From Clostridia bacterium (GTDB lineage: Bacteria > Bacillota > Clostridia > Christensenellales > CAG-138): a stretch of 64,000 bases of DNA. Below, in pieces: positions 22,137-61,534 of this stretch. A program made the translations under genes and the position numbers. Numbering within the stretch: position 1 is the stretch's first letter; each line of letters begins with the position of its first letter. Where the stretch lies: assembly GCA_017525875.1 (NCBI GenBank), contig JAFXSG010000048.1:1856-65855 (forward strand), read 5' to 3'. The notes under the pieces are model-generated. The model saw nothing but the letters and a program-made list of their open reading frames with translations, was not told the DNA's origin and ran no database searches.

Positions 22137-22152
22137 AGAATAAGCCCTTTCG

Positions 22153-23318: not shown

Positions 23319-23347
23319 TTGCACGGCGCTGTTTTCTATGCTATAAT
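23319..23347 (+). promoter_or_regulatory. Sigma-A-type promoter of the small-ORF/ncRNA/RT cassette
   Basis: TTGCAC (23319-23324), 17-nt spacer, TATAAT (23342-23347). Confidence 0.6.
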
Positions 23348-24030: not shown

Positions 24031-24060
24031 CTTATGCAAAAAACACGATCCGAGGCAAGC

Positions 24061-44733: not shown

Positions 44734-45138
44734 TCAGATACGCGCGAACCTCGCAATGATATAGCCGTTCAGCTTCAGATTGGTCTCCGACAAGGTGTTG
44801 TTTCCGGGAATGAAGCGATAGACCTTGTCGTTGCTGTCAACGAGAATAAAATCCCAGTCTCCCCTGTCTTCAAGCGCGATCATGTCCTTCGTCTGCGGAA
44901 AACGTTTATGAAGGGAAGCCGTCCTCACGATCATGTCGGACTTCTCCATCTGTATGCTGTTGACTCCGTAGAATTCGATGTGACTGCAGCCAAGGTATCC
45001 GTAGTCGGTAATATAAGAAGCGAGCTGTTCTCCGATCCTCACGCCGACGAGTCTCTCCATTTCCGGTATGTACGACGCGTCCACCCTGTTGTAGGTAAAG
45101 TCCACGTCATTCTGATCAACAAACTCACTGAGTTTCAT
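44734..45138 (-). CDS. SMI1/KNR4 (SUKH-1) family immunity protein
   Basis: AAGGAGG RBS. It starts 2 nt after the nuclease toxin stop. YIPEMERLVGVRIGEQLASYITDYGYL is a SUKH-type N-terminal motif. Confidence 0.7.
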   Translation of the reverse strand: MKLSEFVDQNDVDFTYNRVDASYIPEMERLVGVRIGEQLASYITDYGYLGCSHIEFYGVNSIQMEKSDMIVRTASLHKRFPQTKDMIALEDRGDWDFILVDSNDKVYRFIPGNNTLSETNLKLNGYIIARFARI

Positions 45139-45923: not shown

Positions 45924-48610
45924 TTCCTTTTGTTTATTCTTTCTTTGATATACACGCGCACCAGCTTTTCGCAGAGCTCGGGATCTGTATTCTTAAGGTC
46001 CCACGTCCGGATCAGGCAGTTCAGCATGCAGTTTTTCGCGTGCTGTCGTTCGACCGGATCCGAAAGGCCCATCTGCGCGTCAACAAAGCGCTCCATGCCG
46101 GTATCGATGGTCTTCACCACGCAGCTTTTGGTTACCGCCGGATCCAGCGACCTTGCAAACCGCCGGAAATCGTCCGCGCCGCCCTTCGTCCACAGTATCT
46201 CCTCCGGATCTTTTCTGCACAGACGGTCACAGGCCATGCAAAGCTTCGAACGCTTGTCCGTGAGCGATTCATAATCCTTGTTTCCTTCGGTGCTTATGCA
46301 GTTTTTCGCGGTTTCAAATAAAACCTGCTCGCGCGTTATTCTGTGTTTTCCGGGTTCTTCATACGAGCCTGCGAATTTGGGTTTTACGAGCTTCGGCCTG
46401 TTATCCCCCTCGGAATATACGGCGGCGACGCCCTGCCGGAGCGACGCAAGGCTGTCTATCTGCTCATCGGTCATGTGCATCGCTCCGCCGATAAGCATGC
46501 GCTCTTCTGCTGCGACCGTTCGGTGAACGATCTTCAGGTTGGTGTTCTTGATAAGGTCCGGAGCCAGTTTTGACGGGATCTGATCCGCAATGATGAAGCC
46601 CTGGCCCTTGCTGCGCAGTTCTGCAAGCAGATTGCAGAAGAATTCGACCGCTGCCCCGCGGGGATCCGCGTTTTCGCCCGAACCGCTCTGAACGTTTTTA
46701 AGCAGCCTGTGCGCTTCCTCGATCAGCATCAGATGCCTGACCTCAAGCTGGCAGTCCTCCTGCTGACGCCTGTACTCCAAAAGATTTACCAGCAGCAGGC
46801 TTATGATGAACGCCTTCACGTCGTCATCGCCGATATCCTCAAGCTCGATCACGACGCTGCCGTTCAGCAGCCGATCCATCGGGAATGAGCGGAGCACGTT
46901 CAGCGTGTCGCCCTTCGTGCCGAGCCGCATGGAGTTCACCCTCGCCTGCAGCGATCCGATCAGGTCGTTGCGCATCCTTGTATCGTAGCCCATCTCGTCC
47001 ACGATCTCCGGGATCGCATAATAGAGGTCTTCGATCGTAGGATAAACGTCCTTCCCGTTGGCGTTTCTGTCGTTATGAATATCCCAGCCATAGTCTTCGT
47101 AGATCTTGTAGATCGCCCTTTCGAGCACGTACGGCATTGGCGTGTACATTATGAAGCTGGCCTTGAACGCCGCGTAAACGAAATCGATATGAGTCTGTAT
47201 CGGTACGGTCCTGACGTTCCCGTTTTCGTCTTTGAAAGCAGCTCGCTCAAACGGATTGATGCAAAATCTGTGGGAATGCGGCCCGACGGAGCCGACGCTG
47301 TAGATCTGCAGGTCGGAATAACCGAGCTTATAGAGTTCCCAGTATTCCTTTTTGGCGGGTTCAATGACCATGAGCGGCCGCGAGGAACCCTTTGTAAGCT
47401 CGCAGATCAGGCTTTTCAAGGTGTTGGTCTTGCCCGAACCCGTAAGGCCGACCACCAGGCAGTGCCTGTTGAATTCATTTGCATCGATGCGATACGTGCT
47501 TTCGGTCTCGACCCCGGAATCGATGATCCTGCCGATGACAAGGTCTCCGCGTTCGCTCCTGTTTACGTCAAACTCCACGTAGTCGATCACCGAAAAACCG
47601 AAAGTATCGATCGTCGGAAGAGCGGCGTAGACTGCAAGCGCCTTACTGCTCAGCATCGTTGAATACCTCGGGTACTGAATGCCGCAATAGTTATCATGCA
47701 AAAACCGAAAACCGTTAACAAGCGGTTCCCTTATCGGGCGCATGCTGTAGATCGCGTGGACCGGTTCCGGCTCAGACTCGTCGCCATAGAACGCGGAAGT
47801 CAAAAGCCCGCCGAGCAAGCATGCGTTTTCTTCGGAATCGGAGCTGAAATTGATCGTTGTGCACCATTCTCCGGAGGCTATGCCCTCCGTCAGCCTTTCG
47901 CAGAAGGCCAATGCCTTTTTGATCAGCATCTCGCTGTGGGGGTATTGCTGCTTGTAGGCGACCGTTTCGAGATTGTTCTCCGACTCCGTGAACGATACTT
48001 CCGTCAGCATACTGTACTGGGATTCAAGGCGCGTCCAATCCTGCTGCTTTGCGAGCATGTCATCATTGTGCACCGGGATGGCAAAAAGCGAGAGTATCCA
48101 TGATCTTTGGCTCATGCCCTTTATCACGGAGTCGATCTGATAAACGTTTTGATAGTTTTTATTGCCGGTAGGATCGCCCTTCAGGAAACCGCCGTACACA
48201 CAGCTGCGGCCGTCGTCGATCTCCCTATATGCAAAGAGCCTGTCGCCGTTTTCTGTTTTTTCAAACCGGAGCTGAGGGAAGACGCCCGCGAGCATTTTTG
48301 AGAGGACCTCGAGCTTTTCAACGACCGTTCCGACGAACAGGGAAATGCGTTTCCCATCGCCCTTCAGGATGAATGAATACGGGATCCCAACGCTGTATAG
48401 GCCGACAAAGAAGCTGGACATAAGGCTCCATATAGGCGTTTCATCCGCGATCCACCGCTTTGAGATCTCGTTCAGCTTGATGTAGTAATATCCCTGCGTA
48501 TCTCCGGTTTCTGTGGTTTCGTCAGTTTGGGACATCGTCATTTCACGATTCATTATCTCGTAAAAAGAACCGATCTCCGCATTGCGTTTATTGATATCGC
48601 TTCTGTTCAT
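45920..48610 (-). CDS. HerA/FtsK-clade P-loop ATPase (DUF87-like) with large N- and C-terminal extensions
   Basis: Walker A HCLVVGLTGSGKTNTLKSL. Walker B RHLMLIEEAHRLL (the hhhhEEAH typical of HerA/DUF87). GFIIADQIPSKL ... NLKIVHRT. A C-terminal Cys cluster LCMACDRLC. Confidence 0.75.
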   Translation of the reverse strand: MNRSDINKRNAEIGSFYEIMNREMTMSQTDETTETGDTQGYYYIKLNEISKRWIADETPIWSLMSSFFVGLYSVGIPYSFILKGDGKRISLFVGTVVEKLEVLSKMLAGVFPQLRFEKTENGDRLFAYREIDDGRSCVYGGFLKGDPTGNKNYQNVYQIDSVIKGMSQRSWILSLFAIPVHNDDMLAKQQDWTRLESQYSMLTEVSFTESENNLETVAYKQQYPHSEMLIKKALAFCERLTEGIASGEWCTTINFSSDSEENACLLGGLLTSAFYGDESEPEPVHAIYSMRPIREPLVNGFRFLHDNYCGIQYPRYSTMLSSKALAVYAALPTIDTFGFSVIDYVEFDVNRSERGDLVIGRIIDSGVETESTYRIDANEFNRHCLVVGLTGSGKTNTLKSLICELTKGSSRPLMVIEPAKKEYWELYKLGYSDLQIYSVGSVGPHSHRFCINPFERAAFKDENGNVRTVPIQTHIDFVYAAFKASFIMYTPMPYVLERAIYKIYEDYGWDIHNDRNANGKDVYPTIEDLYYAIPEIVDEMGYDTRMRNDLIGSLQARVNSMRLGTKGDTLNVLRSFPMDRLLNGSVVIELEDIGDDDVKAFIISLLLVNLLEYRRQQEDCQLEVRHLMLIEEAHRLLKNVQSGSGENADPRGAAVEFFCNLLAELRSKGQGFIIADQIPSKLAPDLIKNTNLKIVHRTVAAEERMLIGGAMHMTDEQIDSLASLRQGVAAVYSEGDNRPKLVKPKFAGSYEEPGKHRITREQVLFETAKNCISTEGNKDYESLTDKRSKLCMACDRLCRKDPEEILWTKGGADDFRRFARSLDPAVTKSCVVKTIDTGMERFVDAQMGLSDPVERQHAKNCMLNCLIRTWDLKNTDPELCEKLVRVYIKERINKRK

Positions 48611-48661: not shown

Positions 48662-50032
48662 TCAAAACAATCCCAGTATCAGTTTCAGTATCACAAATAT
48701 AACGACTATCGTTACGATCGCCGATATCACTTTGGAGAGCACTCCGGAGAGCAGACTGCCTGCATTCGCTCCGAACCCATAAACTATCAGCATCGCGATC
48801 ACCAGTGATACCAGCAAAATGCCGACCAGCGGGAAACTTCGGCGTTTTCCCGAACTCATTCTCGAGAGCATGCCGATCTTCGAAAACGAGAACAGAAAGT
48901 ACAGCACCGTAAGGACCGCCGCAGTGATCAGCCAAGTGGTAAGCAGTTTGCCTAACTTATCGAAAAAATTCCCGCCGGCGCCGGCTGTCAATATGATGAT
49001 GAACGCAAGCACGGCGACGGCGAGTACAGCGTACATCGTGCCGCCGACGGACCGCTGAAAATTGACCGGGCTCCTGTATCCGTTGTTGACGACGTTGATC
49101 CTGCGGGCCATCAGGACGCCGTTTTTGTATTTGCCGCTGACCTCCACCTCGGAATTATCTGCGATCAGCGAGCCGCCCGAGATCGTTCCGTGTACGTTGA
49201 CCTCCACGTCCGTGTACTTCTCATTTCCGAACGTATCGACGCCTTCCGAAACCCGGACCTTAAACCTGTGCAGCAGATCCTCGGTCCTTTGGCCGTACAG
49301 CATTGCGTCAAACAGTTTTTGAGCGAACAGTCTGCGGTATCTTCCGCCTTCAATATCCGAATTGCTGTATTGGGATACCTTGCCCTTGATCTCCGTCGGC
49401 GGGAGCTTTGACTTGCCCATGCTGAACGGCAGCGGTTTTTCCCCGTTTGAGTTTGCCTGATCCGCAAGGCCGGTGTGCTGCGATCCGCTTGGGGTCAGCT
49501 GCCCTTTATCGTCTTTGCCCGTTGGCGTCAGCGGGGGCTGAACAGGCGCAGGCCAGACAGAGCCTCCTGTGTTCCGGCTGCCCCACGTCGGTTTCGCTGC
49601 GCTGCCGGAAGGCGTGCCGCCAAACGCGGAACTCCCGCCCGAAGGAGCGCCGCCGAACGCGGGATTCTTGCCGGAAGGAGCGCCGCCAAACGCGGAACTC
49701 CCGCCGGAAGGAGCGCCGCCGAACGCGGAACTGCCACCCGAAGGAGCGCCGCCAAACGCGGGATTCTTGCCGGAAGAAGCGCCGCTGAACGCGGAACTGC
49801 CGCCGGAAGAAGCGCCGCCGAACGCGGAACTGCCGCCCGAAGGAGCGCCGCCGAACACGGGAGCGCCGCCGGAACGGGTGCTGCCCGAAGGAAGGACCTG
49901 CCTGTTCGCAAGCAAGGCGTCCGGGACCATTTCTGTCTCCAGTTTAGCCGAGCAATAGGGGCAGTTGGTTTGAGTATGGTCCTTGGTATAGGGTCTGCCC
50001 GAACACTTTGGGCAATATTTTACAACGCTCAT
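48662..50032 (-). CDS. Zn-ribbon / xAFGG-repeat / four-TM membrane protein
   Basis: N-terminus YCPKCSGRP...NCPYCSAKL (CxxC..CxxC). Eight (S/P)AFGG-type repeats, a globular domain of about 150 aa, then four C-terminal TM helices. Confidence 0.8.
   Translation of the reverse strand: MSVVKYCPKCSGRPYTKDHTQTNCPYCSAKLETEMVPDALLANRQVLPSGSTRSGGAPVFGGAPSGGSSAFGGASSGGSSAFSGASSGKNPAFGGAPSGGSSAFGGAPSGGSSAFGGAPSGKNPAFGGAPSGGSSAFGGTPSGSAAKPTWGSRNTGGSVWPAPVQPPLTPTGKDDKGQLTPSGSQHTGLADQANSNGEKPLPFSMGKSKLPPTEIKGKVSQYSNSDIEGGRYRRLFAQKLFDAMLYGQRTEDLLHRFKVRVSEGVDTFGNEKYTDVEVNVHGTISGGSLIADNSEVEVSGKYKNGVLMARRINVVNNGYRSPVNFQRSVGGTMYAVLAVAVLAFIIILTAGAGGNFFDKLGKLLTTWLITAAVLTVLYFLFSFSKIGMLSRMSSGKRRSFPLVGILLVSLVIAMLIVYGFGANAGSLLSGVLSKVISAIVTIVVIFVILKLILGLF
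49598..49870 (-). repeat. Coding tandem repeats (GGAPSGGSSAFGG / GKNPAFGG) with core GCGTTCGGCGGC
   Basis: Plus-strand gccgcc(g/a)aacgc recurs about every 45 nt. Confidence 0.9.
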
Positions 50033-50034: not shown

Positions 50035-51612
50035 TCAGTTGCTGTCCTTTTTCGAATTATTGCCGCCGAACGCACCGCGGTTGCCGCCGAACGCACCGCG
50101 GTTGCCGCCGAACGCTCCGGGGTTGCCGCCGTTCCCGCCGAACGCTCCGGAGTTGCCGCCGAACGCACCGTGATTGCCGCCGAAAGCGCCGCGGTTGCCG
50201 CCGAACGCTCCGGGGTTGCCGCCGTTCCCGCCGAAAGCGCCGTGATTGCCGCCGTTCCCGCCGAACGCACCGTGATTGCCGCCGAACGCTCCGGGGTTGC
50301 CGCCGTTACCGCCGAATAAGCCCTTGCCGCTGTTCGGTTTTTCATCAGCGGAAGTGCTGAAGCTGATACGCTTGGTATCATTGTTGTTGTTCTTGTCTTC
50401 GGAAAGCTGTTTGAAGCCGCCGGGGCCGCCGTCTCCGCCGCCCGGTCCGCCGCCGACCGTTGTCGGCAGCTGTACGCCGGTCGAGACAGCGTAGCACAGC
50501 GTTCCCAGTACGACCGCCCACGCAAGGCAGAACATCAATCTCACCATCGAAACAGGCAGTATCCTTGACAGGAACTCCATTATCAGCGCGCCGCCGATGC
50601 AGAGCAGGATATACACAAGAACACTGTTATTCATAGTGCTTTTAATGTTCTGTGCTGCAAGTTTTTTCATCAGCGACCAGAAGACGCCGACTATTGAAAG
50701 GAAACCGATCCTCATCGCGCAGTACAGCCCGTCTTTCTCCATCATGAATCTTGCGGAAAGCAGGTTGCGCTCAAGGTTGTTGGACGCCGCCTTTTTCATG
50801 CTTGCCGCAAGGTTTGAGGCATCGTCGCAATAGACGTAGACGCCGCCGGTCAGGTTTGCGATCCTTTTAAGGAAACCTGAGTTGCAGCCTCCGAAGCCCA
50901 CGCTGCAAATCGAAACGCCGTTGGCAACGCAGTCTTTCGCAACGTCGCGCATACCGAAAGCGGAGCTCCCGCCGTCGCTGAAAAGGATTATCCTCGGTTG
51001 ATCGCCTGCGCCGGTGAGCTTACCTGAACGCAGATCATCCAGGACCGTTCTGACCGAACCCAGGATATTCGTTCCGCCGTATGACTGGAAGTTCAGTTGA
51101 GCGGCGTCGCCGGGAGCATATTTCCCCATACCCTTCAGCAGCGTGGCCCCGGACTCGAATTTATAAACGGCATAAGGAAGTTCTGCCGAATCCTTCATTA
51201 TCTCTTCGATGGCAGAGGGCCTTACGTTTGAGCGGTCGTTTCCCGCCATTGAGCCGGAATCATCGATCAGGAAGATGTATGAGGTCGGCCGGATATCGTT
51301 TTTTCCGCCAAGTTCATACAGGAATTCGAACACACCGGCCAGCAGGAACACCAGGATCAGAACAATGGCTAAAAGCCCGATCGATCCCTTGGTGTTGCGG
51401 GCGTTGTTTGTGTTGCTGAGATCGACCTGAAAATAGCCGCAGGCCGTTACGACAATGCAGAGGATGATCCCGAAGATCAGGAAATAAAGGGCGACGCCAA
51501 GCGGAGTGAACATTTTCTGCGTCAAGGTGTTGAACAGCAGCTCGCCCAGCAGCCAGAACACCACTCCCACTATCAATGATATCAGCGGCAGCTTGATTTT
51601 GTTCTCTTTCAC
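50035..51612 (-). CDS. Polytopic membrane protein with a central MIDAS-vWA domain and a C-terminal GAFGGN repeat tail
   Basis: GTG start. Three N-terminal TM helices. vWA domain YIFLIDDSGSMAGNDRS ... GGTNILG ... IILFSDGGSS, then three more TM helices and 11 xFGG repeats. Its stop is 2 nt from the next start. Confidence 0.8.
   Translation of the reverse strand: MKENKIKLPLISLIVGVVFWLLGELLFNTLTQKMFTPLGVALYFLIFGIILCIVVTACGYFQVDLSNTNNARNTKGSIGLLAIVLILVFLLAGVFEFLYELGGKNDIRPTSYIFLIDDSGSMAGNDRSNVRPSAIEEIMKDSAELPYAVYKFESGATLLKGMGKYAPGDAAQLNFQSYGGTNILGSVRTVLDDLRSGKLTGAGDQPRIILFSDGGSSAFGMRDVAKDCVANGVSICSVGFGGCNSGFLKRIANLTGGVYVYCDDASNLAASMKKAASNNLERNLLSARFMMEKDGLYCAMRIGFLSIVGVFWSLMKKLAAQNIKSTMNNSVLVYILLCIGGALIMEFLSRILPVSMVRLMFCLAWAVVLGTLCYAVSTGVQLPTTVGGGPGGGDGGPGGFKQLSEDKNNNNDTKRISFSTSADEKPNSGKGLFGGNGGNPGAFGGNHGAFGGNGGNHGAFGGNGGNPGAFGGNRGAFGGNHGAFGGNSGAFGGNGGNPGAFGGNRGAFGGNRGAFGGNNSKKDSN
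50056..50325 (-). repeat. Coding tandem repeats (GAFGGN[HRS/GGNP]) with core GCGTTCGGCGGC
   Basis: 21-30-nt units; plus strand gccgccgaacgc(a/t)ccg. Confidence 0.9.
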
Positions 51613-51781: not shown

Positions 51782-54700
51782 TTATAAGTCTCCGGTCTCC
51801 TTGAGGTCCTCAAGGGCTTTTGCGAAAGCCTTGAAGTTGCCGATAAGCGTTTCTGCGTCGTTCGGCCCTGCGCACTTCTTCGGAATATTGTAATACTCGA
51901 AGTAATTGGAGGATGCAAGCTGCTTTCCGATATCCCTGTTCCTTGCGGCGATATCCCTCATTGTGAACAGAGACGAGTTAAGGGCGGCATTGATGTTGTC
52001 AAGCACGTCCTGGCAAGACGGCAGCTTGGCGCCGCGGTTCTTGCTCTGATAATCATCGCATGCCCTGTCTATCGCGTCGGTCACGACGTCATTCAGCGCT
52101 TCCCTGACGAAAGCGGAGAAGACGATAAAGTCCATAAAGGGAACGTCGATCTTCTCGTTCTTCTTCTTGTAGTCGTCGAGGAAGAGGATCGGCTTGTCGT
52201 GTTCGTTGGCGCTGTACGTGCAGAACCAACCCTTATCGGGATCATTGGAGATCATACCGCACTGCCTTGCCCTGATATAGTAGCTGACGTTCCTGTCGAA
52301 CTTCGAAACGCCGGCAAGGTTTTCGAACAGGTTCATGCTCTTATACTCGTTGTACTTCTCAAGCAGCAGCCTGTGCATGACCATATCGGAACGGACGATG
52401 CGGTAAATGTTCTTGAGGTCGAACCTGTTGCCCGGCATGTTGGTCTGCCTTGACTTAAGGCTGTCGTTATTGATAGCCCTTTCAAGCCGAATCTCCGAAT
52501 AATACTTATGATTGTCCTCAGCGTTGATGCTGTCAAGCGCGTCTTTCCAGGTGTGGTCGCCTCCTCCGCTCCGGAGCTCGACGATCTTCTTTTCGATCCT
52601 GTCGATGAATTCCGGACTGGTGTCCCCAAGGACGCAGACGACGTATTTGTTGGTTGGATCCGTGTAGATATACCCGTTCTCGAGACCGAATTCGACGATC
52701 TTTTTGATCTCGTCATACATCTCTACGTCGTTATTGAACACCTTGCCGTTCTTTATGCAGCGTTTATCGTCCTGGATACGCGCAGAAAACTCGGGCTTAT
52801 TGATCGTTTGAACAAAATAGTCCTCCGTATCCTTGCCGTAGATCTCGGGAAGGTAAGTCTGCCATTTTTCCGAGACCTCGTTCAGATGACGCCCGGCTGA
52901 ATTCGAGACCAGTTTTTCGGCATTGAAATACTCGGACGCATAGTCCTTCATGTTCCTGACCATCTCGGGGGAGAAAGGCCTGATGCATTCGAATTCGGAG
53001 ATCTCGGTAATGAGGCCGTCCGCTACGCTCGTGCTGTATCCGCCGGGATATCTTTGCATCAGCTCCGCTTCGATCTCACGGTTAAGGTTGGGAGTATCGG
53101 CCAGGAGCACGATGTCAATGGTTTTGTCAAACTTGTTGGCAGCGGTGGTCAGTCTTTCATCGAAGGCAATCAGCGCGCTGCCGGAGATGGTATCCACTAT
53201 TCTCACGGCAGCTTCACGCAGCGCGTTGTTCCGGAGAATAACATTATTCCAGATATTGTTCAAAGCCTCGATATCTATGGCCTCGTTATTGCCGTTGCCC
53301 CAGACGATCTGTTCCTTATTGCCGTATACGAGCACGACGAACTTCTCGAGCTTGTCCCCGATGATCGGCTGTATCGCGTCGCTGAACACATTACGGAGTT
53401 TATCACAGAGCAGATCGGGAGAATTGATATACGTCTGCCAGTTCCCGCGCTCGTCGGCGCTGAACAGCAGATCGGTCAGGTTATTCTGGATCAGCTGCAT
53501 AGTCTCGGGATCAGCTACCATGCCTTCGAACATCTTCTCGAACAAGTCGTTCCGTTCCATCGCGCCGTCCAGATTGAACGCGTTGAGTGAGAACACGGTG
53601 CGCCTTTCCTCATGCCTGAGATAGTATTTTGCGAAGATATCCGAATCCTCGTTCAGGATATCGGCAAGGTTCATTATGATCGGAGTGTAGATCTCGAAGG
53701 TCTCGTTGCTGTATGTGCGCAGCTGATTGATCAGCATCCCGATGAACTGCTGCATGTAATTGTTTATAAAGAGGCTGTCGAAATACGCATCCGAATATGC
53801 TGCGCACGCGCCGATAAAGGTTTCGACCTCCTCGTCATGCGGGTTGGAATCCTTCTGCAGAGTTTCTTTTGCGGCCTCAAGATTGTTCTGCTGCTGCGCA
53901 AGCGCTGTATTCGCTTGCGTGAGCGCGTCCGGAAGCGTGTTATAGATATCGGTAAGGATTCCGATAAGTCCCTGGATGTGAACGTTGCCGCCTCCGTCAG
54001 TACCTGCGAGGATGACGTTCGCGCCTACGGGGCCGTACTCCTCCCAAAGATTAGCCGCCCTGCCGTCAGGCATATAGAAAGCGCTCTTGCCCTCAAGGAG
54101 CTGCTGCACGGTATAAACGATGTTGGAAACGCATGTATCAAGGCCGGTCATGGAGTTTATCTTTATCTCCGCCGCTTCTTTCGCCGCCAGGATGGATTCA
54201 TCAAGGCCTTTCATCTTCCCCAGCCACTGTGTGCCGATCCTTTGAGGATACTTATCTTTTCCGATCCTTAAGCTCTGTGAGCTGATGCCCTTTTTGTCTT
54301 TGATCGAACGAAGTATGTCATGGGCCGAGTCGATACCGAGGCCGCCGGCGATATAGTGCGCGTCATCGGTGGTGAATTTGAACGCACGCTTATAGCGCTC
54401 AATGATCTGCGCAAACGCCTTGTTCGCGACGTACGCCGCCATCTCGTTCTTCGGCAGATACACGGAGCGGTAGCCGAACGAGGAGAAGGAGTTGTTCATA
54501 AACGCGGGGAAATAGGTATTCTTTATGCCGCAGGGATCCGGATCGACCCCTGCTTCGGGAATACCCACGACGTCCGTTTCCCAGGTGCCGACGTTTCTTC
54601 CGATATTGCACAGCGTACTGATGATCGACTGGCGCTTTGTTCTGTCAACTGCGTCGATCTGCCCCGGGCGGAACATGTTGAGGATGCTTTCGGCCACGCA

Positions 54701-55615
54701 CTCGATCGTCTCTTCAAACCTGTTGACCTGAGGCGTAGCGGAGACCATGAAAGCATACCCGCGCTTGAAGATCGGCTTGCTGCAGGTCCGTTCTCCGCCC
54801 GCCGGGTCTACAACGTGCAGCGTATATACCGGTTCTATCTCTGCCTCGCTGCCAACGTTCATAAAATAGCTGAGCTCCTTCATTGCCGCATAGCCGTTCT
54901 GCTGGACCGTTTTCCATTTAGCGGCATTCTCGCCGACTTCCGGAATGGATCTCTGAACGTCCGGAGTGTAGAATATGCCGTAAAGATTTGTCGATATGCC
55001 GTCTTCCAGGCCCAATTTCTCGAGGATCATCCTAACCATATAGGAGATATCGATAAAGGTGCCGCTGCCGGTGCCGCCGGAAATACCGGCGCAGATAACC
55101 ACTTCGATAATGCCGTTTGCGGAAAAGCCTTTGATCAGGTTTTTGATCGTTTTCTCAAGCGCGGCATATTTTTGAGTACCGCAGAGCAAAACACGGCCGA
55201 CTACACGCCTGCTCTTGGCGCCGGTCTCATCGATGATCTCCGAGGGCACGTCCGTACTCAGCCAGTCCTTGACGATCTCGGGCCGGTCGATGAGCAGGCG
55301 CTGTGAATCCTTATCATACAGCTCAAAGATCTCATTGACAACAATGTTGCCTCCGTTCTCCCGTTTCAAAGCCTTGACGTCGTTTTCGTCAGTATCTATG
55401 CACATGAACTTTACGTCAGGGTTCTGTTCAAACTTGGCCTCGTAGGCGCCTTTGATCTTGCTGACGGTCTGACAGCCCGCACCGCCGATGCCGATGAACA
55501 GTATCCTGCTGTTGGTGTTCAGCTTATGCCTGTTGACCTTGCCCAGAATGCTGCCGCCTTTTTTTACGGACAGTTCTTTGAGCAGTTCTCTTGCTTCTTC
55601 CTGTGTGATAGGCAT
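51782..55615 (-). CDS. Giant (1277 aa) tubulin/FtsZ-like GTPase-domain protein
   Basis: AAGGAGAAAG RBS. The N-terminal 230 aa or so carry ILFIGIGGAGCQTV (T1-like GxGGxG), CIDTDEND, ETGAKSRRVVGRV (T3-like) and VVICAGISGGTGSGTFIDISY (tubulin signature GGGTGSG). The remaining ~1000 aa are mostly helical-looking and unassigned. Confidence 0.8.
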   Translation of the reverse strand: MPITQEEARELLKELSVKKGGSILGKVNRHKLNTNSRILFIGIGGAGCQTVSKIKGAYEAKFEQNPDVKFMCIDTDENDVKALKRENGGNIVVNEIFELYDKDSQRLLIDRPEIVKDWLSTDVPSEIIDETGAKSRRVVGRVLLCGTQKYAALEKTIKNLIKGFSANGIIEVVICAGISGGTGSGTFIDISYMVRMILEKLGLEDGISTNLYGIFYTPDVQRSIPEVGENAAKWKTVQQNGYAAMKELSYFMNVGSEAEIEPVYTLHVVDPAGGERTCSKPIFKRGYAFMVSATPQVNRFEETIECVAESILNMFRPGQIDAVDRTKRQSIISTLCNIGRNVGTWETDVVGIPEAGVDPDPCGIKNTYFPAFMNNSFSSFGYRSVYLPKNEMAAYVANKAFAQIIERYKRAFKFTTDDAHYIAGGLGIDSAHDILRSIKDKKGISSQSLRIGKDKYPQRIGTQWLGKMKGLDESILAAKEAAEIKINSMTGLDTCVSNIVYTVQQLLEGKSAFYMPDGRAANLWEEYGPVGANVILAGTDGGGNVHIQGLIGILTDIYNTLPDALTQANTALAQQQNNLEAAKETLQKDSNPHDEEVETFIGACAAYSDAYFDSLFINNYMQQFIGMLINQLRTYSNETFEIYTPIIMNLADILNEDSDIFAKYYLRHEERRTVFSLNAFNLDGAMERNDLFEKMFEGMVADPETMQLIQNNLTDLLFSADERGNWQTYINSPDLLCDKLRNVFSDAIQPIIGDKLEKFVVLVYGNKEQIVWGNGNNEAIDIEALNNIWNNVILRNNALREAAVRIVDTISGSALIAFDERLTTAANKFDKTIDIVLLADTPNLNREIEAELMQRYPGGYSTSVADGLITEISEFECIRPFSPEMVRNMKDYASEYFNAEKLVSNSAGRHLNEVSEKWQTYLPEIYGKDTEDYFVQTINKPEFSARIQDDKRCIKNGKVFNNDVEMYDEIKKIVEFGLENGYIYTDPTNKYVVCVLGDTSPEFIDRIEKKIVELRSGGGDHTWKDALDSINAEDNHKYYSEIRLERAINNDSLKSRQTNMPGNRFDLKNIYRIVRSDMVMHRLLLEKYNEYKSMNLFENLAGVSKFDRNVSYYIRARQCGMISNDPDKGWFCTYSANEHDKPILFLDDYKKKNEKIDVPFMDFIVFSAFVREALNDVVTDAIDRACDDYQSKNRGAKLPSCQDVLDNINAALNSSLFTMRDIAARNRDIGKQLASSNYFEYYNIPKKCAGPNDAETLIGNFKAFAKALEDLKETGDL

Positions 55616-55635: not shown

Positions 55636-58233
55636 TTATTTGGTATATTGAATCGATACGTGGCTGACAGGCGTGTTGCCGTCGTTGTCCTTATCGCCCG
55701 CCTTTACCGAAATATCGATATTGATCGTCCTTCCATTCGGGTTAACAGTGGTCTTTTTCTTGAACCCGGGCTCATGGAACATCACCGACTTGCCGGAGTT
55801 CTTGATGATCGTTCCTCGCTTACCGAACGGAGCGGTGCCGCAAAGCATGACGCTGCTCAGCGTCGCCTTGAATGAACTTTCGACGAATTCTCTGACTTCG
55901 TCGTAGAGGATGCTGGTTTTGCCGTTTTCATTCATAGCCTGGCCGTACTTGGAGACGAATTCCTCAAGGACCGAATACAGCGATCTTTTCTTAAGCCTGC
56001 CGCTCAGCGAGACCGGCGTGTTGAATTGGTTGCTCTTTTGTTTTTCCTCCTCGCGCACTTTATCCTTAAGGTTATCGGTATTACTGCTGAAGAATCCGCC
56101 GTTCCGATCGGACGGTGTGGCTGCCTGTCCGCCGAACGCCGAGCCGCCGCCGAACGCCGAACCGCCGCCAAACGCAGAACCGCTGCCGAACGCCGAGCCG
56201 CCGCCAAACGCCGAGCCGCCAAACGCAGAACCGCCGAACGCCGAGCCGCTGCCGAATGCCGAGCCGCCTGTTGTGTTTCCTGACGGAGCCGCTGACTTGA
56301 ACGGGTCGTTTACGACGGGCGGTACTCCCTTCCCGGGCGCCGTCCTCGTCCTGTTGACCTGATGCTTACCATCGGGCATGGAATTTGGGTTGCGGTAGAC
56401 GTCTTCTTCGTTATGGAACGTGCCGGAACCGTCCACGCAGCCTTTTGCGAGCAGCAGCACTTTCATTTTGCCGGGAACGCGGATCGTTGCCCTGACGAGT
56501 GCGGAGACTATCGCCAGCGCTATGAGCGCGATGCCGAGGATTATGCCGATTATTATCGCAAGCGCTCCGGGATCGTCCACGCTGACCTTAAACGTTGATT
56601 CAACGGAATTGTTCTGTGCGTCCGTGAATTGCAGAGTGACGAGGGTGCTCGCCCACCAGCCCTTAACGCCGGTTATGTTCACCTTATCCCCGTCAATGGC
56701 AACGTCGGCAACGTCCGCCGGGGAAACGCTCTTTACGGTGACTTCCACAGGGTCGTTTTCCGCATCGTAAACGTACCGGAAGATATCGCTGACGGTAACC
56801 GTTTTGCCCTTTCTGACGCGGGTGTCGGGGATATCCTTAACAAGCTCCACGGGAGTGTTGCTTGACATGACCGTCAGGGTGTCTTCGCGATACAGGGTGT
56901 CCCATTCGAGCCTAATCTTTACGTCGTAAAAACTGTCTTCCGAGACCACAAAGCTCCCGACGAACGATCTGCCGTCGCGCTGCAGGTCGAGCACTCTCGT
57001 ATCGTCAGGGTTCGCTCTTGAAACGATGGTCGCTTTCGCGGAGGTTACGCAGTCGTAGATCTCGTCGTTCTCGAGAGCGGCGTCGTCGTAAGTCAGCCAG
57101 GTCCTGATCCCGACAACGTCGTTCGTATACGCAACGCCTACGGGGTTGCCCTCCGGGAAAACGAGCTGGCTGGTGAGGTTCATTTTATAATGCTCCAGCA
57201 GGCCGATGTGGATATCGTCCCCCTGAATGTTGCTGACGGAAAGCAGCCATGTGCCGGGCTGAGGCATTATGACCTTTATGCTTGCCGCAGTCACGTCCGT
57301 ATCGAAGCGGACGTTGCCGGAGTTGGCCAGCTGGACCTCTCTGCCGCTGGGATCGAACAACCTGATCTTGCCTTCTTTAATGGCGTTCGGGTTGCCGCCG
57401 GAAATGCGGATATTTGCCTCTATAACGCTCGGGTTGATGGGTATCTCGCACTGGTGGGCGCCGCCGTCGCCGGGGATCACGCCTACCGGCAGATAGATAA
57501 GATCACATTCCTCCGCAAGCAGATCGATGAAAAGCTGCTCGATCTCGCCGGTGCTGTGTATCGCGCGGAACGATCCGCCCGTGCTTTCCGCAATATTGCT
57601 GAGCTTTTTCAGGCCTTCTCCGTCCGCGCCCATCGAGCTTTCGCCCGAGGAAGTTATATAGTCGTATCCGACGCAGTAAATATGGCAGTTGTTGCTCTTT
57701 GCCCACTTTATCGCATCGACCTCGTTTTCCTCGCAAGCGGCAAGCGCGAGCAGATTATAGCCAAAGTCGTTCACGCCGTCGGTGAACAGGATGATCGCCC
57801 TTGCATGATCTTCGTCCGAACAGCTGTTGAGCAGATCGGTCGCGGCAAGCACCGCGTTGCCGATGCCCGTATCGCCCTTGTACTTGATCGAATCGACCGC
57901 GCTTCGGACCGTTTCGATCCCGGTAAACTCCTGCAGTGCGATCAGCGCGGGGTTGCCCGCATGGTCCGTCGTCAGGATCGTCGGATCCGTGTTGAAGCTG
58001 ATGATGCCCACACGGCTGTCCTGCGCCGGCATCATATTGACGAGCATCCTGATGGCTGACAGAGCTGTTTTTTCTTTATCGGAATGCAGCATCGATCCGC
58101 TGGAGTCGATGACGACCACCAGATCCAAAGGCTTATACTCTTTTTCGGTCTCCAATTCTTCCGCAAAGCATTCGAATGCTGTGAAAGTCAAAAACAGCAG
58201 GGCTAACAAAAGAGCGGCTATCCTCTTCATCAC
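55636..58233 (-). CDS. Signal-peptide MIDAS-vWA protein with Ig-like region, single TM and a cytoplasmic SAFGG-repeat tail plus C-terminal domain
   Basis: Signal peptide MMKRIAALLLALLFLTFTAFECFA. vWA domain LDLVVVIDSSGSMLHSD ... GDTGIG ... IILFTDGVND. TM helix ALAIIIGIILGIALIALAIVSALV followed by RATIRVPGKMK. Eight SAFG repeats and a 160-aa C-terminal domain. Confidence 0.85.
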   Translation of the reverse strand: MMKRIAALLLALLFLTFTAFECFAEELETEKEYKPLDLVVVIDSSGSMLHSDKEKTALSAIRMLVNMMPAQDSRVGIISFNTDPTILTTDHAGNPALIALQEFTGIETVRSAVDSIKYKGDTGIGNAVLAATDLLNSCSDEDHARAIILFTDGVNDFGYNLLALAACEENEVDAIKWAKSNNCHIYCVGYDYITSSGESSMGADGEGLKKLSNIAESTGGSFRAIHSTGEIEQLFIDLLAEECDLIYLPVGVIPGDGGAHQCEIPINPSVIEANIRISGGNPNAIKEGKIRLFDPSGREVQLANSGNVRFDTDVTAASIKVIMPQPGTWLLSVSNIQGDDIHIGLLEHYKMNLTSQLVFPEGNPVGVAYTNDVVGIRTWLTYDDAALENDEIYDCVTSAKATIVSRANPDDTRVLDLQRDGRSFVGSFVVSEDSFYDVKIRLEWDTLYREDTLTVMSSNTPVELVKDIPDTRVRKGKTVTVSDIFRYVYDAENDPVEVTVKSVSPADVADVAIDGDKVNITGVKGWWASTLVTLQFTDAQNNSVESTFKVSVDDPGALAIIIGIILGIALIALAIVSALVRATIRVPGKMKVLLLAKGCVDGSGTFHNEEDVYRNPNSMPDGKHQVNRTRTAPGKGVPPVVNDPFKSAAPSGNTTGGSAFGSGSAFGGSAFGGSAFGGGSAFGSGSAFGGGSAFGGGSAFGGQAATPSDRNGGFFSSNTDNLKDKVREEEKQKSNQFNTPVSLSGRLKKRSLYSVLEEFVSKYGQAMNENGKTSILYDEVREFVESSFKATLSSVMLCGTAPFGKRGTIIKNSGKSVMFHEPGFKKKTTVNPNGRTINIDISVKAGDKDNDGNTPVSHVSIQYTK
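56128..56268 (-). repeat. Coding tandem repeats (GGSAFGG) with core GCGTTCGGCGGC
   Basis: Plus strand gccgccgaacgccgagcc / gccgccaaacgcagaacc, in 18-24-nt units. Confidence 0.9.
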
Positions 58234-58407
58234 GCAATGTTTCCTCCGTTATGATCTTGATATTGGCTGTACGGGGAGCAAAGTGCGAATATGATCTTTG
58301 CCCAAGGCGGCACTTGCTTCGGCCGTGATAAATAAGAAAAAGGCAGTTTGAATTGGCAAGTCAGTACGGTACACACCCTATATCACCTTTCCTAAACCTA
58401 CTATTTT

Positions 58408-58435
58408 ATTATATCATATCATTAGGCAGAGTCAA
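58408..58435 (-). promoter_or_regulatory. Near-consensus sigma-A promoter of the ten-gene operon
   Basis: On the minus strand: TTGACT (58435-58430), 16-nt spacer, TATAAT (58413-58408). This implies a leader of about 170 nt before the ATG at 58233. Confidence 0.6.
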
Positions 58436-59012
58436 GCCAAATAACCGCAAATGCGTCGATTTTCGACAGCAAACACGCCGGCGGGACAGAGGAAGACCCG
58501 AAGCTCTCCGCGCCTGCGCCGCAGCGAGGGTGCGTGAGGATCATCTCGCTGTTTTATGAAAATTTCGTTGTATTCTAATGATAAAATGACACGCTCTGAC
58601 AGACCGGTCCGGTATGCTTCATGCAGCCAGCCCCGCGACCCCGGGACCGTTTGTGATCCGGATCGCGAGCCGTCCGCTGCAAAAGCACCGTTTCACGCGC
58701 TTGCCATCACAGCTCCCGCTTTCCGCCATGTGCCGCATCCGCCGGTCGGGGCAAGCCCCTATGCATTCCATGGAGGAGGACCGAAAAATCGGCGGAAGAA
58801 AAGGAAAAGCGAGTATCGACTGAGAACCGTTGTCAATACTCGCTGTGTAGATTTCGTCGCGCTCTTGTTTGCCCTTGTATGCCTTATGACGATCCGTTTG
58901 CCTGCTGCGTTCTGCGGCAGAGGGCTGCGGCGCAGAGCAGGCGATGAGCGTCATCGGGTTCGTTCTTTTTGATCGGCAGCGCGAGCTCTTTCCGCACGCC
59001 GGGCCGTCGGGA

Positions 59013-59211
59013 TCAATACCCGGTATAGTCGAACTCGAAAGTTATCCACTCGCCGAAATCGTTTTCATCCAGGCAGGAAACGATATGATCCTCATGGGAA
59101 AAGCTTTCGAACGTGTGATCCCACAGAGGCGCGAACGTATCGTCGTCGGCTGCGTAGTCGGGATGCGGGTGCTCCTGTGAATATATGCAGGTAATGAAGC
59201 AAGCGTTTCAT
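59013..59211 (-). pseudogene. Small ORF apparently split by a frameshift
   Basis: AAAGGAAG RBS, then ATG at 59211 (MKRLLHYLHI...). The protein-like continuation SQEHPHPDYAADDDTFAPLWDHTFESFSHEDHIVSCLDENDFGEWITFEFDYTGY* is in the +1 frame, ending at 59013. Confidence 0.3.
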
Positions 59212-59437
59212 AATTCTTCCTTTCATTTCGTTATTTCGTAATGGAGCATTTGAATGCGAGCGTATTTCCCGGCTGCGGACCCTGCCCGCCTCTATTATCA
59301 GCGGGCAGGGATGCTTCCACAGGCTAATGCCTTTATGGTATTAGGCAGCATCGTTTGTGCCGAAGAACTCATAGTTTGCTTTGACGCATATGAGTTTCCC
59401 TTCGGCATCGAACCGGCCAGCTGAAGGAACATACGGT

Positions 59438-60382
59438 TTATCCGAGCGTGACGAGATTCAGATTGAATATGTATTGGCAAAGCACATCGCCCGCAGTTGT
59501 GCCTTTGGTAATGAAGAGCGGCATATAATTGTCAGCGCTGCCTTCGAATACGGCGACCAGCTTATCGTAGACGGCATTATGCTCCGCATCAGCACGGATG
59601 CCGACGAGAATGATCGCGCTGTAATCGGTGGGAGAATTCGGATCATCGACGGTCATACAAAAATCGTAGAACTCGTCTTTCAAGATCCTCTCGGAGACCT
59701 CCTCATCATAGACGGCGTCGAGCATGGAGAGCGCCTCGGTCAGTTCGTCGATCTCGAAGGCGATTGGGAAGGCCTTGAACACGGCGGTATACTTCGCAAG
59801 CTCCTTTGCCGAGACGATCTCGAAATCGCTGAGGCTGCGTTCCACCTTTGTGGCGGAAACGATATCGGCGCAGAGCTCCTTCGCTTCTTCGTATGGCGTG
59901 CACGCGGAAACGGTCCAGCCGCTGCCCTCTCGGCGGAGGGTGAAGAAGCAGGCCTTTGAAATGTCGGCGGGATCCCTCGAGGTTGAGCCGTAGACGTATG
60001 AAGCTTCATCGGCGGAATAGACGAGCTTCTTGAAGACAGCTGCGTTGACGGTACCGTCAGCTTCGATGCTCGACTTGAGCGCATCCACCTGTTCGTGTGA
60101 GAGCGGGCAGTCCCTGCGGAGCAGGCAGAGCTTTTCGCCATCCCCGGAAACGAGGAAGTAGGCGTCATTGTCAGCATCGATGGTGTATTCGGTGCCATTG
60201 TCCTCCCCGTCGTGCGGAGTCGGCGTGGTGGTGTTCGGCGTCGGCGCCTCGGTCACGGGCGCTTCGGTAACGGGATTTGCGGTCGTTGGGTCTGCGATCG
60301 GCTTGGGTGAAGCGGTGCAGCCGGCAATGGTCGAAAGCAGCATCGTGGCTGCGATTACAAAAGCAATCAGTTTCTTTTTCAT
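59438..60382 (-). CDS. Lipoprotein, unknown function
   Basis: AAGGAG RBS. MKKKLIAFVIAATMLLSTIAGCTAS (lipobox), then a T/P-rich linker. Confidence 0.7.
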   Translation of the reverse strand: MKKKLIAFVIAATMLLSTIAGCTASPKPIADPTTANPVTEAPVTEAPTPNTTTPTPHDGEDNGTEYTIDADNDAYFLVSGDGEKLCLLRRDCPLSHEQVDALKSSIEADGTVNAAVFKKLVYSADEASYVYGSTSRDPADISKACFFTLRREGSGWTVSACTPYEEAKELCADIVSATKVERSLSDFEIVSAKELAKYTAVFKAFPIAFEIDELTEALSMLDAVYDEEVSERILKDEFYDFCMTVDDPNSPTDYSAIILVGIRADAEHNAVYDKLVAVFEGSADNYMPLFITKGTTAGDVLCQYIFNLNLVTLG

Positions 60383-60909: not shown

Positions 60910-60973
60910 ATTAAGAGAATCATTCAAATTGTGCCTATATATGTCCTCGTTTGCGATAAAGGAGGTTTCATAC

Positions 60974-61534
60974 ATGCTTCTGATGTATCTGTCAATGCTG
61001 CAAACGGATGAGGAACGTGCTTTTTTCACGCAGCTGTATACCAAATACCGCTATCAGATGTTTCGCGTTGCAAAAAAGTACTTGCACAACGAATTCGATG
61101 CAGAGGATATCGTTCATGACATTTTCAAGATCGTTGCAGACGATCATATGCGGGATCTTGAGAATCGAACCGATGCGGATGTGCGCCGTTTTCTCTTATG
61201 CTGTGCAAAAAACAGATCTCTCAACCTGATGAAAAGCCGCTCGAAAATAGTATCTCTGGATTCACTCATGGAGCAGGGCTGGGATGAGATCGACCTCAGT
61301 AAGGATCCGATCGACGAGATAATTGCGGATCGTGCTCTCACAAAGCAGGCTGAGGAAGCTATCGCCGGGCTGGATCCTATGTACGGTGATCCGCTTTGGA
61401 TGCATCTGAAGGGGTACAGCGCGGCAGAGGTCGCAAAGCTGTTCAACGAAAACTACGAAGCGGTCAAGAAACGCACGTACAGGGCAAAGCTCCTGCTCAG
61501 AAAAGCCGTGCTCGGGGAAGGAGGCGAAGCATGA
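60974..61534 (+). CDS. Sigma-70 family (group 4/ECF-like) RNA polymerase sigma factor
   Basis: AAAGGAGG RBS. Region 2 string DAEDIVHDIFKIV and region 4 HTH GYSAAEVAKLFNENYEAVKKRTYRAKLLLRK. Confidence 0.8.
   Translation: MLLMYLSMLQTDEERAFFTQLYTKYRYQMFRVAKKYLHNEFDAEDIVHDIFKIVADDHMRDLENRTDADVRRFLLCCAKNRSLNLMKSRSKIVSLDSLMEQGWDEIDLSKDPIDEIIADRALTKQAEEAIAGLDPMYGDPLWMHLKGYSAAEVAKLFNENYEAVKKRTYRAKLLLRKAVLGEGGEA

Follow-up and report, generated by a model that had tools for sequence, protein, structure and literature searches.

What could a tubulin-like GTPase do in a bacterial operon made of membrane proteins, an ATPase and toxins? The question is raised by a stretch of 64,000 nucleotides from a Clostridia bacterium (contig JAFXSG010000048.1 of assembly GCA_017525875.1), hereafter the window, in which the second gene of a ten-gene operon encodes a protein of 1277 amino acids (aa) that we call Tub. 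This protein belongs to the Pfam family Tubulin_2 (PF13809), which equals FtsZl1, the 'FtsZ-like 1' family of Makarova & Koonin (2010, Biol Direct 5:33; PMC2875224), as stated in PMC9871819. FtsZl1 is the most divergent branch of the tubulin/FtsZ superfamily, and the only proposals about it in the literature searched (most subscription journals being outside its reach) came from comparative genomics: membrane remodelling in 2010, and a conflict system in 2020, when Kaur, Burroughs, Iyer & Aravind (eLife 9:e52696; PMC7159879) described Firmicute tubulin and vWA genes within DO-GTPase systems of the GAP1-N2 type. A preliminary description of the window had mentioned a poorly characterised tubulin-like family and a link of such proteins with membrane remodelling; the family is real, being this one, and the link is the one drawn by Makarova & Koonin (PMC2875224). 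The operon ties FtsZl1 to readable outputs, namely a DNase, an NADase, immunity proteins and a pump-type ATPase, and the role of Tub is therefore directly testable.

The tubulin/FtsZ-type protein Tub

The gene and the parts of its product, all on the minus strand, are as follows.

51782-55615, minus strand: Tub1277 (Tub), FtsZl1/Tubulin_2-family protein of 1277 aa (open reading frame, translation, Pfam, homologues)
54401-55501, minus strand: tubulin/FtsZ-fold GTPase region of Tub, aa 39-405 (Pfam, AlphaFold2, Foldseek, hhalign, column conservation)
53636-53968, minus strand: antiparallel helical hairpin of Tub, coiled-coil-like, about aa 550-660 (AlphaFold2 model)
51785-53635, minus strand: C-terminal alpha/beta region of Tub, about aa 661-1277, with no assignable fold (AlphaFold2 model)

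The open reading frame (ORF) is uninterrupted, with 1277 codons plus a stop, as the preliminary description had it; the strand, left unstated there, is the minus one, and the plus-strand translation is riddled with stops. Translation starts at the ATG at 55615, with an AGGAG ribosome-binding site 8 nt before it and the stop of the upstream gene 20 nt before it, and homologues are alignable from residue 1. The four motifs formerly quoted as a tubulin signature are all there, in the order given for them and far beyond chance: ILFIGIGGAGCQTV at aa 38-51 (nt 55463-55504), which holds the T1 loop GIGGAG (aa 42-47); CIDTDEND at aa 72-79; ETGAKSRRVVGRV at aa 130-142 (nt 55190-55228), with the T3-like GAKSRRVVGR; and VVICAGISGGTGSGTFIDISY at aa 172-192 (nt 55040-55102), with the T4 loop SGGTGSG. 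The two elements that mark a GTPase domain of this superfamily, a glycine loop T1 and a T4 signature GGGTG(S/T)G, are represented by GIGGAG and SGGTGSG, and a T5-like YTPDVQ also lies within the GTPase region.

Profile searches point in the same direction. Pfam Tubulin_2 matches aa 39-405 at an E value of 7.4e-43 with 147.6 bits (cut-off 27), covering profile positions 1-355 of 356, and the classical Pfam Tubulin family (PF00091) matches aa 37-186 with 30.8 bits, just under its cut-off of 33. Among 5.8 billion proteins searched, 317 homologues were found at E<1e-5, some 37 of them alignable over the full length at 28-97% identity; the few that have a name are called 'tubulin-like domain-containing protein' and come from metagenome-assembled genomes (MAGs) of Faecalibacterium, Oscillospiraceae and Eubacterium. 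Across 79 homologues the invariant residues are G44, G45 and G47 of T1, G132 and R137 of the T3-like loop, G177 and G180-G185 of T4, D189, and N240, which sits in helix NGYAAMKELSYFM. Such invariance of the loop residues indicates selection for nucleotide binding.

A comparison of an AlphaFold model with FtsZ, TubZ and tubulin, suggested in the preliminary description, led to these proteins and to no others. The AlphaFold2 model of aa 1-480, built on the homologue alignment (pLDDT 83.9, pTM 0.72), was compared by Foldseek with the PDB, and the top 50 matches were all FtsZ, CetZ, TubZ or tubulin (E 5e-7 to 7e-5, probability 1.00). They span 290-350 aligned columns, against FtsZ cores of about 305 aa, and so take in the whole two-domain core, with modest TM-scores of 0.35-0.49 and identities of 10-16%. 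GTPase domain, core helix H7 and activation domain, the hallmarks of the two-domain fold of the superfamily, are all present in the model, which suggests that Tub has kept an FtsZ-like second (activation) domain that the sequence methods of 2010 did not detect. In a profile alignment by hhalign with E. coli FtsZ, whose sequence was entered by hand (a weakness of this comparison), T1, T3 and T4 pair correctly and the alignment ends at helix H4, in agreement with the report that FtsZl1 could not be aligned with FtsZ beyond H5 (PMC2875224). Altogether, the N-terminal ~400 aa of Tub are, by profiles and model alike, a two-domain tubulin/FtsZ fold with intact nucleotide loops T1, T3 and T4, and the early assignment of the N-terminus to the tubulin/FtsZ GTPases holds by Pfam hidden Markov model, by the hhalign pairing of these loops and by the fold that AlphaFold2 and Foldseek give.

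The remainder of the protein, about 1000 aa in which no motif could be placed by eye, proved equally silent in Pfam, NCBIfam and PADLOC, where nothing matches outside the N-terminal domain (~870 residues). In the AlphaFold2 model of aa 481-1277 (797 aa, pLDDT 82.2), two helices (model positions 81-108 and 114-177) form a hairpin of about 100 residues, after which come several alpha/beta domains. The hairpin is the same segment as the coiled coil described for FtsZl1 in 2010 (PMC2875224), and the models of Tub display the architecture of that family, with an FtsZ-like N-domain, an extended coiled coil and an alpha-rich C-terminal domain in a protein of ~1000+ aa. Foldseek searches with the 797-aa model gave nothing significant in the PDB (best E 0.076) or in BFVD, a collection of predicted viral structures (best E 0.036). 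Rows naming dynein, tape-measure or F-BAR proteins were dismissed (E>0.03, TM-scores <0.25), as were the results of a PDB profile search with the Tub family alignment, which returned only coiled-coil chance matches, located in the hairpin (designed helical bundles, haemagglutinin HA2). An exhaustive HMMER search of 1.84 billion representative proteins gave the C-terminal region only 43 relatives (29 at E<1e-30), all of them at the same position in proteins of about 1250 aa or in fragments, and it contains a conserved AGRHLDE motif with G908, H910 and E913 in invariant columns. From the model and these searches, the C-terminal ~800 aa are a structured, clade-specific region, whose confinement to the small clade of 43 representatives sets Tub apart from FtsZl1 in general. 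As a separate observation, some homologues (P0013, P0016 and the protein of locus L019) have C-terminal zinc-ribbon repeats fused to the tubulin-like protein.

The operon and its conservation in gut Clostridia

All ten genes point the same way on the minus strand, between 58233 and 42699, with intergenic gaps of -4 to 169 nt, two of them overlaps of 4 nt, and a convergent FAD-oxidoreductase gene lies downstream. The G+C content is 51-56% in the operon region and 58-63% in the flanks. Besides Tub, the operon comprises the following elements, where TM stands for transmembrane.

58408-58435, minus strand: promoter-like TTGACT-16-TATAAT with an extended -10 TG, about 175 nt upstream of vWA865 (consensus match only)
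55636-58233, minus strand: vWA865, secreted-and-anchored vWA protein, first gene (Pfam VWA E 8e-13, weak GBD_Hemicentin)
50035-51612, minus strand: vWA525, vWA protein with 6 TM helices (Pfam VWA_2 and VWA, TM prediction)
48662-50032, minus strand: unk456, zinc-ribbon/4-TM protein (sequence, TM prediction)
45920-48610, minus strand: ATPase896, P-loop ATPase of the HerA/FtsK/VirB4 superfamily (Pfam DUF87 E 3e-13, and FtsK_SpoIIIE)
45141-45923, minus strand: LHH260, toxin with a C-terminal LHH (HNH/EndoVII) nuclease (Pfam LHH E 5e-19)
44734-45138, minus strand: SUKH134, SUKH_5 immunity protein for LHH (Pfam SUKH_5 E 6e-8; always after LHH)
43974-44684, minus strand: TNT236, acidic leader and C-terminal TNT, an NAD+ glycohydrolase (Pfam TNT E 4e-19)
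43733-43966, minus strand: Imm77, 77-aa ORF, presumed TNT immunity protein by position only (ORF)
42699-43709, minus strand: TGase336, Transglut_core (papain-fold) protein, last gene (Pfam Transglut_core E 9e-9)

The promoter-like site, with 11 of 12 consensus matches, is the best of the region. It lies within about 1.2 kb (58234-59437) that contain no convincing ORF, between vWA865 and the gene of a putative lipoprotein (59438-60382, minus strand), and in which no Rfam family reaches its threshold. The opposite strand, some 2.7 kb upstream of the operon, carries the gene of an ECF-type sigma factor (Sigma70_r2/r4_2) and after it, with an overlap, that of a DUF4367 membrane protein, likely an anti-sigma factor (the pair at 60929-62199).

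The three membrane proteins share a trait. In vWA865, a signal peptide is followed by an extracellular vWA domain, beta-sandwich domains, a TM helix (about aa 568-586), a cytoplasmic tail of GSAFGG repeats (nt 56129-56268, period 18 nt) and a C-terminal globular domain; in vWA525 the extracellular vWA domain lies between two sets of three TM helices, and GAFGGN repeats (nt 50060-50316, period 21 nt) make up the cytoplasmic tail. The third, unk456, whose start overlaps the stop of vWA525 by 4 nt, has no Pfam match; its zinc ribbon (CPKC...CPYC) is N-terminal and is followed by SSAFGGA repeats (nt 49604-49874, period 33 nt), by a beta-rich domain that is conserved and, at the C-terminus, by four TM helices. 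Tandem arrays are thus carried by predicted cytoplasmic segments of all three proteins, and a single 12-nt core, GCCGCCGAACGC, read as AFGG on the coding strand, underlies all of them: it has 26 matches against 1.8 expected, 24 of which fall within the three arrays, and FG dipeptides in the tails exceed the expectation from composition 2.4- to 2.8-fold. These are rare bacterial tails of FG-type repeats, with a plausible common partner.

In ATPase896, about 350 unassigned N-terminal aa precede a domain with Walker A GLTGSGKT and Walker B LIEEAH, whose closest PDB sequences are HerA, VirB4 and DUF87 proteins. The family is large, with 861 homologues at E<1e-5, the Walker residues are invariant, and a 100%-identical protein is recorded from a 'Clostridia bacterium' MAG. 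Weak matches to the NCBIfam models 'ser_rich_anae_1' and CedD, limited to ATPase896, did not lead to a specific family.

The toxin gene LHH260 starts 4 nt before the ATPase896 gene stops. Its leader has a net charge of about -61 over 125 aa and includes a tandem repeat (nt 45598-45738) of 15/45-nt units encoding PEEEQPEEET, with a local AT skew down to -0.32. Long polyanionic leaders (net charge -18 to -104) are shared by all toxins of the related loci, and they begin with G/S/D-rich motifs containing Tyr or Phe. The motif (S/T)ELY occurs 16 times in them against 0.56 expected, which is a lead only, the motif having been defined post hoc; a type VII-like YxxxD/E signal was set aside as uninformative, being expected by chance in such acidic sequence. 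The Imm77 ORF belongs to no Pfam family, and its homologue search gave only three near-identical matches; homologues stand directly after TNT in loci L005, L007, L085 and L086. The transglutaminase-like protein has homologues at the same position in L080 and also within L021, and papain-like C39_2 proteins are present in the related loci L081 and L139.

By tblastn and Pfam annotation of contigs, the same gene set in the same order was found in L001, L003, L004, L005, L007, L008, L080, L082/83, L085, L086 and L088. The set recurs in at least 12 loci of gut Clostridia, with toxin types that differ between them, and the hosts are Ruminococcus, Oscillospiraceae, Eubacterium, Ruminiclostridium and Acutalibacteraceae MAGs as well as gut metagenomes. 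Some of these loci have a divergent Tub, at 22-24% identity. A gene of the vWA865 type precedes that of Tub in nearly all loci, and a homologue of the C-terminal half of unk456 lies directly upstream of the ATPase in every close one. The LHH nuclease is conserved after the ATPase in 10 loci at 50-72% identity and is the most usual occupant of the first toxin slot, which is taken in L082/83 by a WHH/colicin-DNase with SUKH_6, in L087 by a Gln_amidase and in L084 by a 617-aa protein of unknown type. TNT (conserved in L001, L005, L007, L085 and L086), with its 77-aa ORF, occupies the second slot, where L003 has instead an ADP-ribosyl-cyclase-like protein below threshold. In L015 the set is kept through the ATPase and a 509-aa MotA/ExbB-like proton-channel protein (21204-22730) replaces the toxin-immunity pair. 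Downstream of the toxin cassette, L004 encodes a TIR-LRR protein (21368-23335), L085 the Card1 endonuclease (14703-15989) and L086 type III CRISPR Cas10/Cmr3/RAMP proteins (12681-16168); a defence-island association is possible for these three.

Two modules can be told apart in these arrangements. Module A (vWA protein, Tub, multi-TM vWA protein) is common to the operon of the window and to the DO-GTPase systems; module B (4-TM protein, ATPase, toxin and immunity genes) travels as a unit. The pair of unk456-like protein and ATPase occurs without Tub within the fetched regions of L084 and L087, the latter having a vWA protein, PP2C and a kinase instead, and distant environmental relatives of the ATPase (31-42% identity) lie in mixed contexts, mostly with no Tub nearby; of the loci from this metagenome scan, L088, L139 and L152 alone proved informative. 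L019 is a minimal set of vWA, Tub, vWA and zinc-ribbon/4-TM genes, with neither ATPase nor toxins. On the other hand, ATPase, vWA and Tubulin_2 genes recur in another order in the environmental contigs L139 and L152, which lends independent support to a functional link among them. The Ruminococcus locus L002 has, at 6643-13783, two full-length tandem Tubulin_2 paralogues of 1094 and 1271 aa, against one in the window. The viral contigs scanned contain no relative, and a phage origin was rejected for this reason.

Elsewhere in the window, a reverse transcriptase of 422 aa (RVT_1, E 9e-21) is immediately preceded by an Rfam RT-5 RNA (77.7 bits), both within 23908-25302, with a tRNA-Val (25401-25477) just downstream; this stand-alone pair of reverse transcriptase and noncoding RNA is possibly retron-like or defence-related. 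An FMN riboswitch (RF00050, 100 bits) occupies 2852-2983 on the plus strand, and Cleaved_Adhesin domains are combined with a type I dockerin in an 855-aa protein (34722-37289), which suggests a cellulosome-bearing host of the Ruminococcaceae/Oscillospiraceae type.

Possible roles of Tub

We propose that Tub is a GTP-dependent scaffold or switch in a toxin-deploying system, a role that we hold to be evenly balanced between right and wrong on what the sequences tell. Beneath the membrane, Tub would act as an assembly scaffold or switch controlled by GTP and would bind the cytoplasmic tails of the outward-facing vWA receptors; a ligand outside or GTP loading inside would then lead Tub to nucleate or gate the complex of 4-TM protein and ATPase, and this complex would deploy the toxins. 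The suggestion in the preliminary description, that such a GTPase could organise or gate the apparatus, is a reasonable conjecture. The best computational hint of Tub contacting the tails is a correlation: loci whose Tub is at least 30% identical to that of the window are the only ones to retain the tail domain of vWA865 and FG-type repeats, and where the ~23% subtype occurs, domain and repeats are replaced. Other kinds of FG-type tail (PFGS, acidic GFGF, G[IL]F) are found in L002, L003, L005, L080 and L082.

How the toxins would be deployed is a more tentative matter. We favour, as a somewhat unlikely possibility, an apparatus that exports toxins in competition between bacteria and has EssC of type VII secretion as its functional analogue. 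The ATPase would thread the acidic leaders, in unfolded form, through the 4-TM protein and thereby across the membrane, and the papain-fold protein might be a leader peptidase. Export is favoured because each toxin has its dedicated immunity gene of the polymorphic-toxin type, because the toxin domain swaps on a constant type of leader, because a 4-TM protein always accompanies the ATPase, whose translation is coupled to that of the first toxin, and because two components have large extracellular parts (vWA; PMC7159879). In this regard, the arrangement known from polymorphic toxins, a variable C-terminal toxin on a constant N-terminal part followed by an immunity gene (Zhang et al. 2012), is found in the operon and its related loci, where SUKH_5, SUKH_6 or small ORFs come after the toxins and the leader may serve as trafficking signal. 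Carried to its full extent, the idea becomes a new protein-export apparatus of monoderm gut Clostridia, in which Tub, on the FG tails of integrin-like vWA receptors, would gate a HerA/FtsK-derived pump seated on the 4-TM protein. Polyanionic and DNA-mimicking, the leaders would let the pump thread the toxins, whose N-terminal G/S-rich aromatic motifs would partition into the layer formed by these FG tails, and the papain-fold enzyme would cut the leader off; this complete version is speculative, and we rate it as unlikely. Export, if true, would give the abundant Firmicutes of the gut a new route of secretion and put the tubulin fold to a new use, and the complete apparatus would be a new type of secretion system and the first function assigned to any FtsZl1 protein.

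Several observations weigh against a GTP-driven, toxin-deploying Tub. A T7 'synergy' loop, with the catalytic Asp/Glu by which one subunit completes its neighbour's GTPase site, could be neither aligned nor recognised by conservation in Tub, according to the hhalign comparison, which extends to H4, and to column conservation. The loop after the long helix of aa 231-253 (aa 254-263) is variable among homologues, and the only conserved acidic residues near it, E247 (100%) and D249 (91%), are modelled inside the helix, in the motif N240-G-Y-A-A-x-K-E-L-D-Y-F; moreover, position 249, elsewhere 91% Asp, is Ser in the Tub of the window. Polymerisation-coupled GTP hydrolysis by Tub is therefore doubtful, and perhaps modified, and none of the present computations supports polymerisation. 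FG-type tails are missing in L008, L015, L019 and L085, which are exactly the loci where Tub is of the 22-24% subtype and where conservation of the vWA865 homologue reaches no further than its TM helix. No TM segment is predicted in ATPase896, no known secretion domain (LXG, WXG or signal peptide) is seen in the toxins, and no obvious cell-wall conduit among the operon proteins. The LHH/SUKH/TNT cassette is better conserved across loci than Tub, unlike hypervariable polymorphic toxins; defence or mobile neighbours (type III CRISPR, Card1, TIR and mobile-element genes) stand in some loci; and the sibling systems of Tubulin_2 and vWA proteins are predicted to act intracellularly against invaders (PMC7159879). 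The literature searched contains no experiments on any FtsZl1 protein.

Part of this evidence fits an intracellular conflict system of the abortive-infection type, the main rival, which we consider somewhat unlikely and about as probable as export. Here, the vWA proteins and Tub would sense phage or envelope damage, GTP-dependent assembly of Tub would set the threshold, and the HerA-type ATPase would free the DNase and the NADase, for example by stripping off their immunity proteins, so that the producer is killed or arrested. A DNase with an NAD+-consuming effector is a typical combination of abortive infection, the cassette is conserved and not hypervariable, and Cas10/Cmr3/RAMP (L086), Card1 (L085), TIR-LRR (L004) and integrase/resolvase/HTH-M78 genes (L081) are found as neighbours. 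HerA ATPases are partners of NADase or nuclease effectors in known defence systems; the HerA matches obtained here with PADLOC are weak. In PADLOC-DB 2.0 no defence system matches: the P-loop region of the ATPase gives only weak HerA and mad8 matches, and no model fits Tub or any of the vWA, toxin and immunity proteins. The window has no defence island directly around the operon, and no relatives were found in viral contigs. The closest described systems (Tubulin_2, two vWA proteins, DO-GTPase and GAP1-N2) were predicted to be anti-invader, with NTP-dependent multimeric assembly (PMC7159879), the Paenibacillus locus L024 is exactly of this kind, and the same ATPase family appears in a DO-GTPase2/GAP1-M locus (L084). 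However, SUKH families are typical of polymorphic toxin systems, and a SUKH-type immunity gene for each toxin marks exported polymorphic toxins, not most effectors of abortive infection (PMC3482391), while an intracellular trigger would have no obvious need of two components with large extracellular domains or of an ATPase always accompanied by a 4-TM protein. If true, the defence reading would reveal a tubulin-based immune switch.

Two further possibilities concern Tub as a filament or membrane-shaping protein. Makarova & Koonin proposed membrane remodelling and vesicle biogenesis for FtsZl1/vWA operons (PMC2875224), and in such a cytoskeletal machine Tub and the vWA proteins would shape membranes or vesicles, the ATPase-toxin-immunity genes being an independent neighbouring cassette. 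The module of 4-TM protein, ATPase and toxin does occur without Tub (L087, with vWA, PP2C and kinase), most of the distant metagenomic relatives of the ATPase have no Tub nearby, and the minimal L019 has neither ATPase nor toxins. This independence is hard to reconcile with the fact that both modules stay together in the same order despite a Tub at 22-24% identity, and meet again in another order in L139 and L152, with genes translationally coupled in one operon; no BAR, ESCRT-III or dynamin domain was found, F-BAR fold matches having E>1, and we regard the proposal as improbable for this locus. Far less credible still is a cytomotive filament of the TubZ/PhuZ kind that would segregate the DNA of a mobile element with the FtsK/HerA ATPase as DNA pump. 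TubZ ranks with the best matches of the fold, most FtsK/HerA ATPases translocate DNA and L087 is on a conjugative-type element, but the window lacks a TubR-like centromere-binding gene, genes for replication or partition and any phage or plasmid context, the constant partners of Tub are extracellular vWA membrane proteins and toxins, no T7 loop was found and Tub has 800 residues beyond TubZ/PhuZ. We keep the GTP-dependent scaffold or switch as the preferred role of Tub.

Comparison with known systems

At the level of the GTPase, the predicted fold of Tub aa ~36-400 is alike to those of FtsZ, TubZ, CetZ and tubulin, with T1 GGxG, T3 GAxxxRxxGR and T4 GGTGSG in common. In contrast to FtsZ and tubulin, Tub could not be aligned in S6/H6, shows no recognisable T7 loop of the NxDxxD/E kind and lacks FtsZ_C and Tubulin_C domains, and it has 35 extra conserved residues at the N-terminus and ~870 extra residues at the C-terminus.

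Loci of the type VIIb secretion system (T7SSb) carry the FtsK/SpoIIIE ATPase EssC, followed by variable toxin-immunity genes. The operon of the window resembles them by analogy and not by homology: both have an FtsK/HerA ATPase next to membrane proteins with large extracellular parts, and then nuclease or NADase toxins with small immunity genes. EssC-type ATPases have TM and FHA domains, whereas ATPase896 has a single P-loop domain and neither of these; the toxins of the window use polyanionic leaders instead of WXG100/LXG; and type VII systems are devoid of a tubulin-superfamily GTPase and of vWA proteins, both present in the window. No homologue of WXG100/LXG, YukD, EssA or EssB was found with Pfam or NCBIfam in any operon protein, and the operon does not belong to T7SSb.

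Among tubulin-like systems, no description of a tubulin combined with a HerA/FtsK ATPase and toxins was found in the literature searched. The same holds for a replacement of DO-GTPase/GAP1 by HerA/FtsK ATPase, 4-TM partner and polymorphic toxin-immunity pairs, for polyanionic toxin leaders, for shared FG-repeat tails and for a retained second FtsZ-like domain. With the FtsZl1 operons at large, the operon of the window shares the vWA partner: FtsZl1 genes adjoin genes of vWA proteins with intact metal-ion-dependent adhesion site (MIDAS) motifs (PMC2875224), often with signal peptide or TM helices, and Tub is flanked by vWA865 and vWA525, with the MIDAS motifs DSSGS and DDSGS, respectively, a partner that is kept in 70+ loci. 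An operon of membrane proteins, ATPase and toxins around such a GTPase had at first been judged unusual; it is indeed real and conserved, but its membrane/vWA context is a hallmark of the family (PMC2875224; PMC7159879). The operons of 2010 contained kinases, a divergent GTPase and OmpA-family proteins, and the window has instead the HerA/FtsK ATPase, the zinc-ribbon/4-TM protein and toxin-immunity pairs.

The closest relatives are the GAP1-N2-type DO-GTPase systems, which have two coiled-coil tubulins, two vWA proteins (one of them multi-TM with the vWA domain outside), DO-GTPase and GAP1, and which, as DO-GTPase/GAP1 systems, are predicted to be NTP-dependent conflict (anti-invader) systems (PMC7159879). 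The Paenibacillus loci (L010, L020-L079) and Bacillus loci retrieved with Tub are of this type; in L024 the order is vWA, Tubulin_2, degenerate Tubulin_2, multi-TM vWA, DO-GTPase and GAP1-N2/M, and its match to GAP1-N2 (E 7e-42) served as positive control. With the same Pfam annotation the operon proteins show no DO-GTPase and no GAP1, and tblastn against the 64-kb window gave nothing below E 0.59 with three DO-GTPases and nothing below E 0.29 with GAP1; a second tubulin paralogue is also lacking in the window, where the 'tubulin theme' of the Firmicute DO-GTPase systems is present with one tubulin against the two described. The pair of 4-TM protein and ATPase and the classical toxin-immunity pairs, which Kaur et al. 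(2020) do not mention, stand there instead, and in L084 both worlds meet, with DO-GTPase2/GAP1-M combined with the ATPase family of the window. What the DO-GTPase systems and the operon of the window have in common is a Tubulin_2 protein with a coiled coil, a beta-sandwich vWA protein upstream and a multi-TM protein with extracellular vWA domain downstream.

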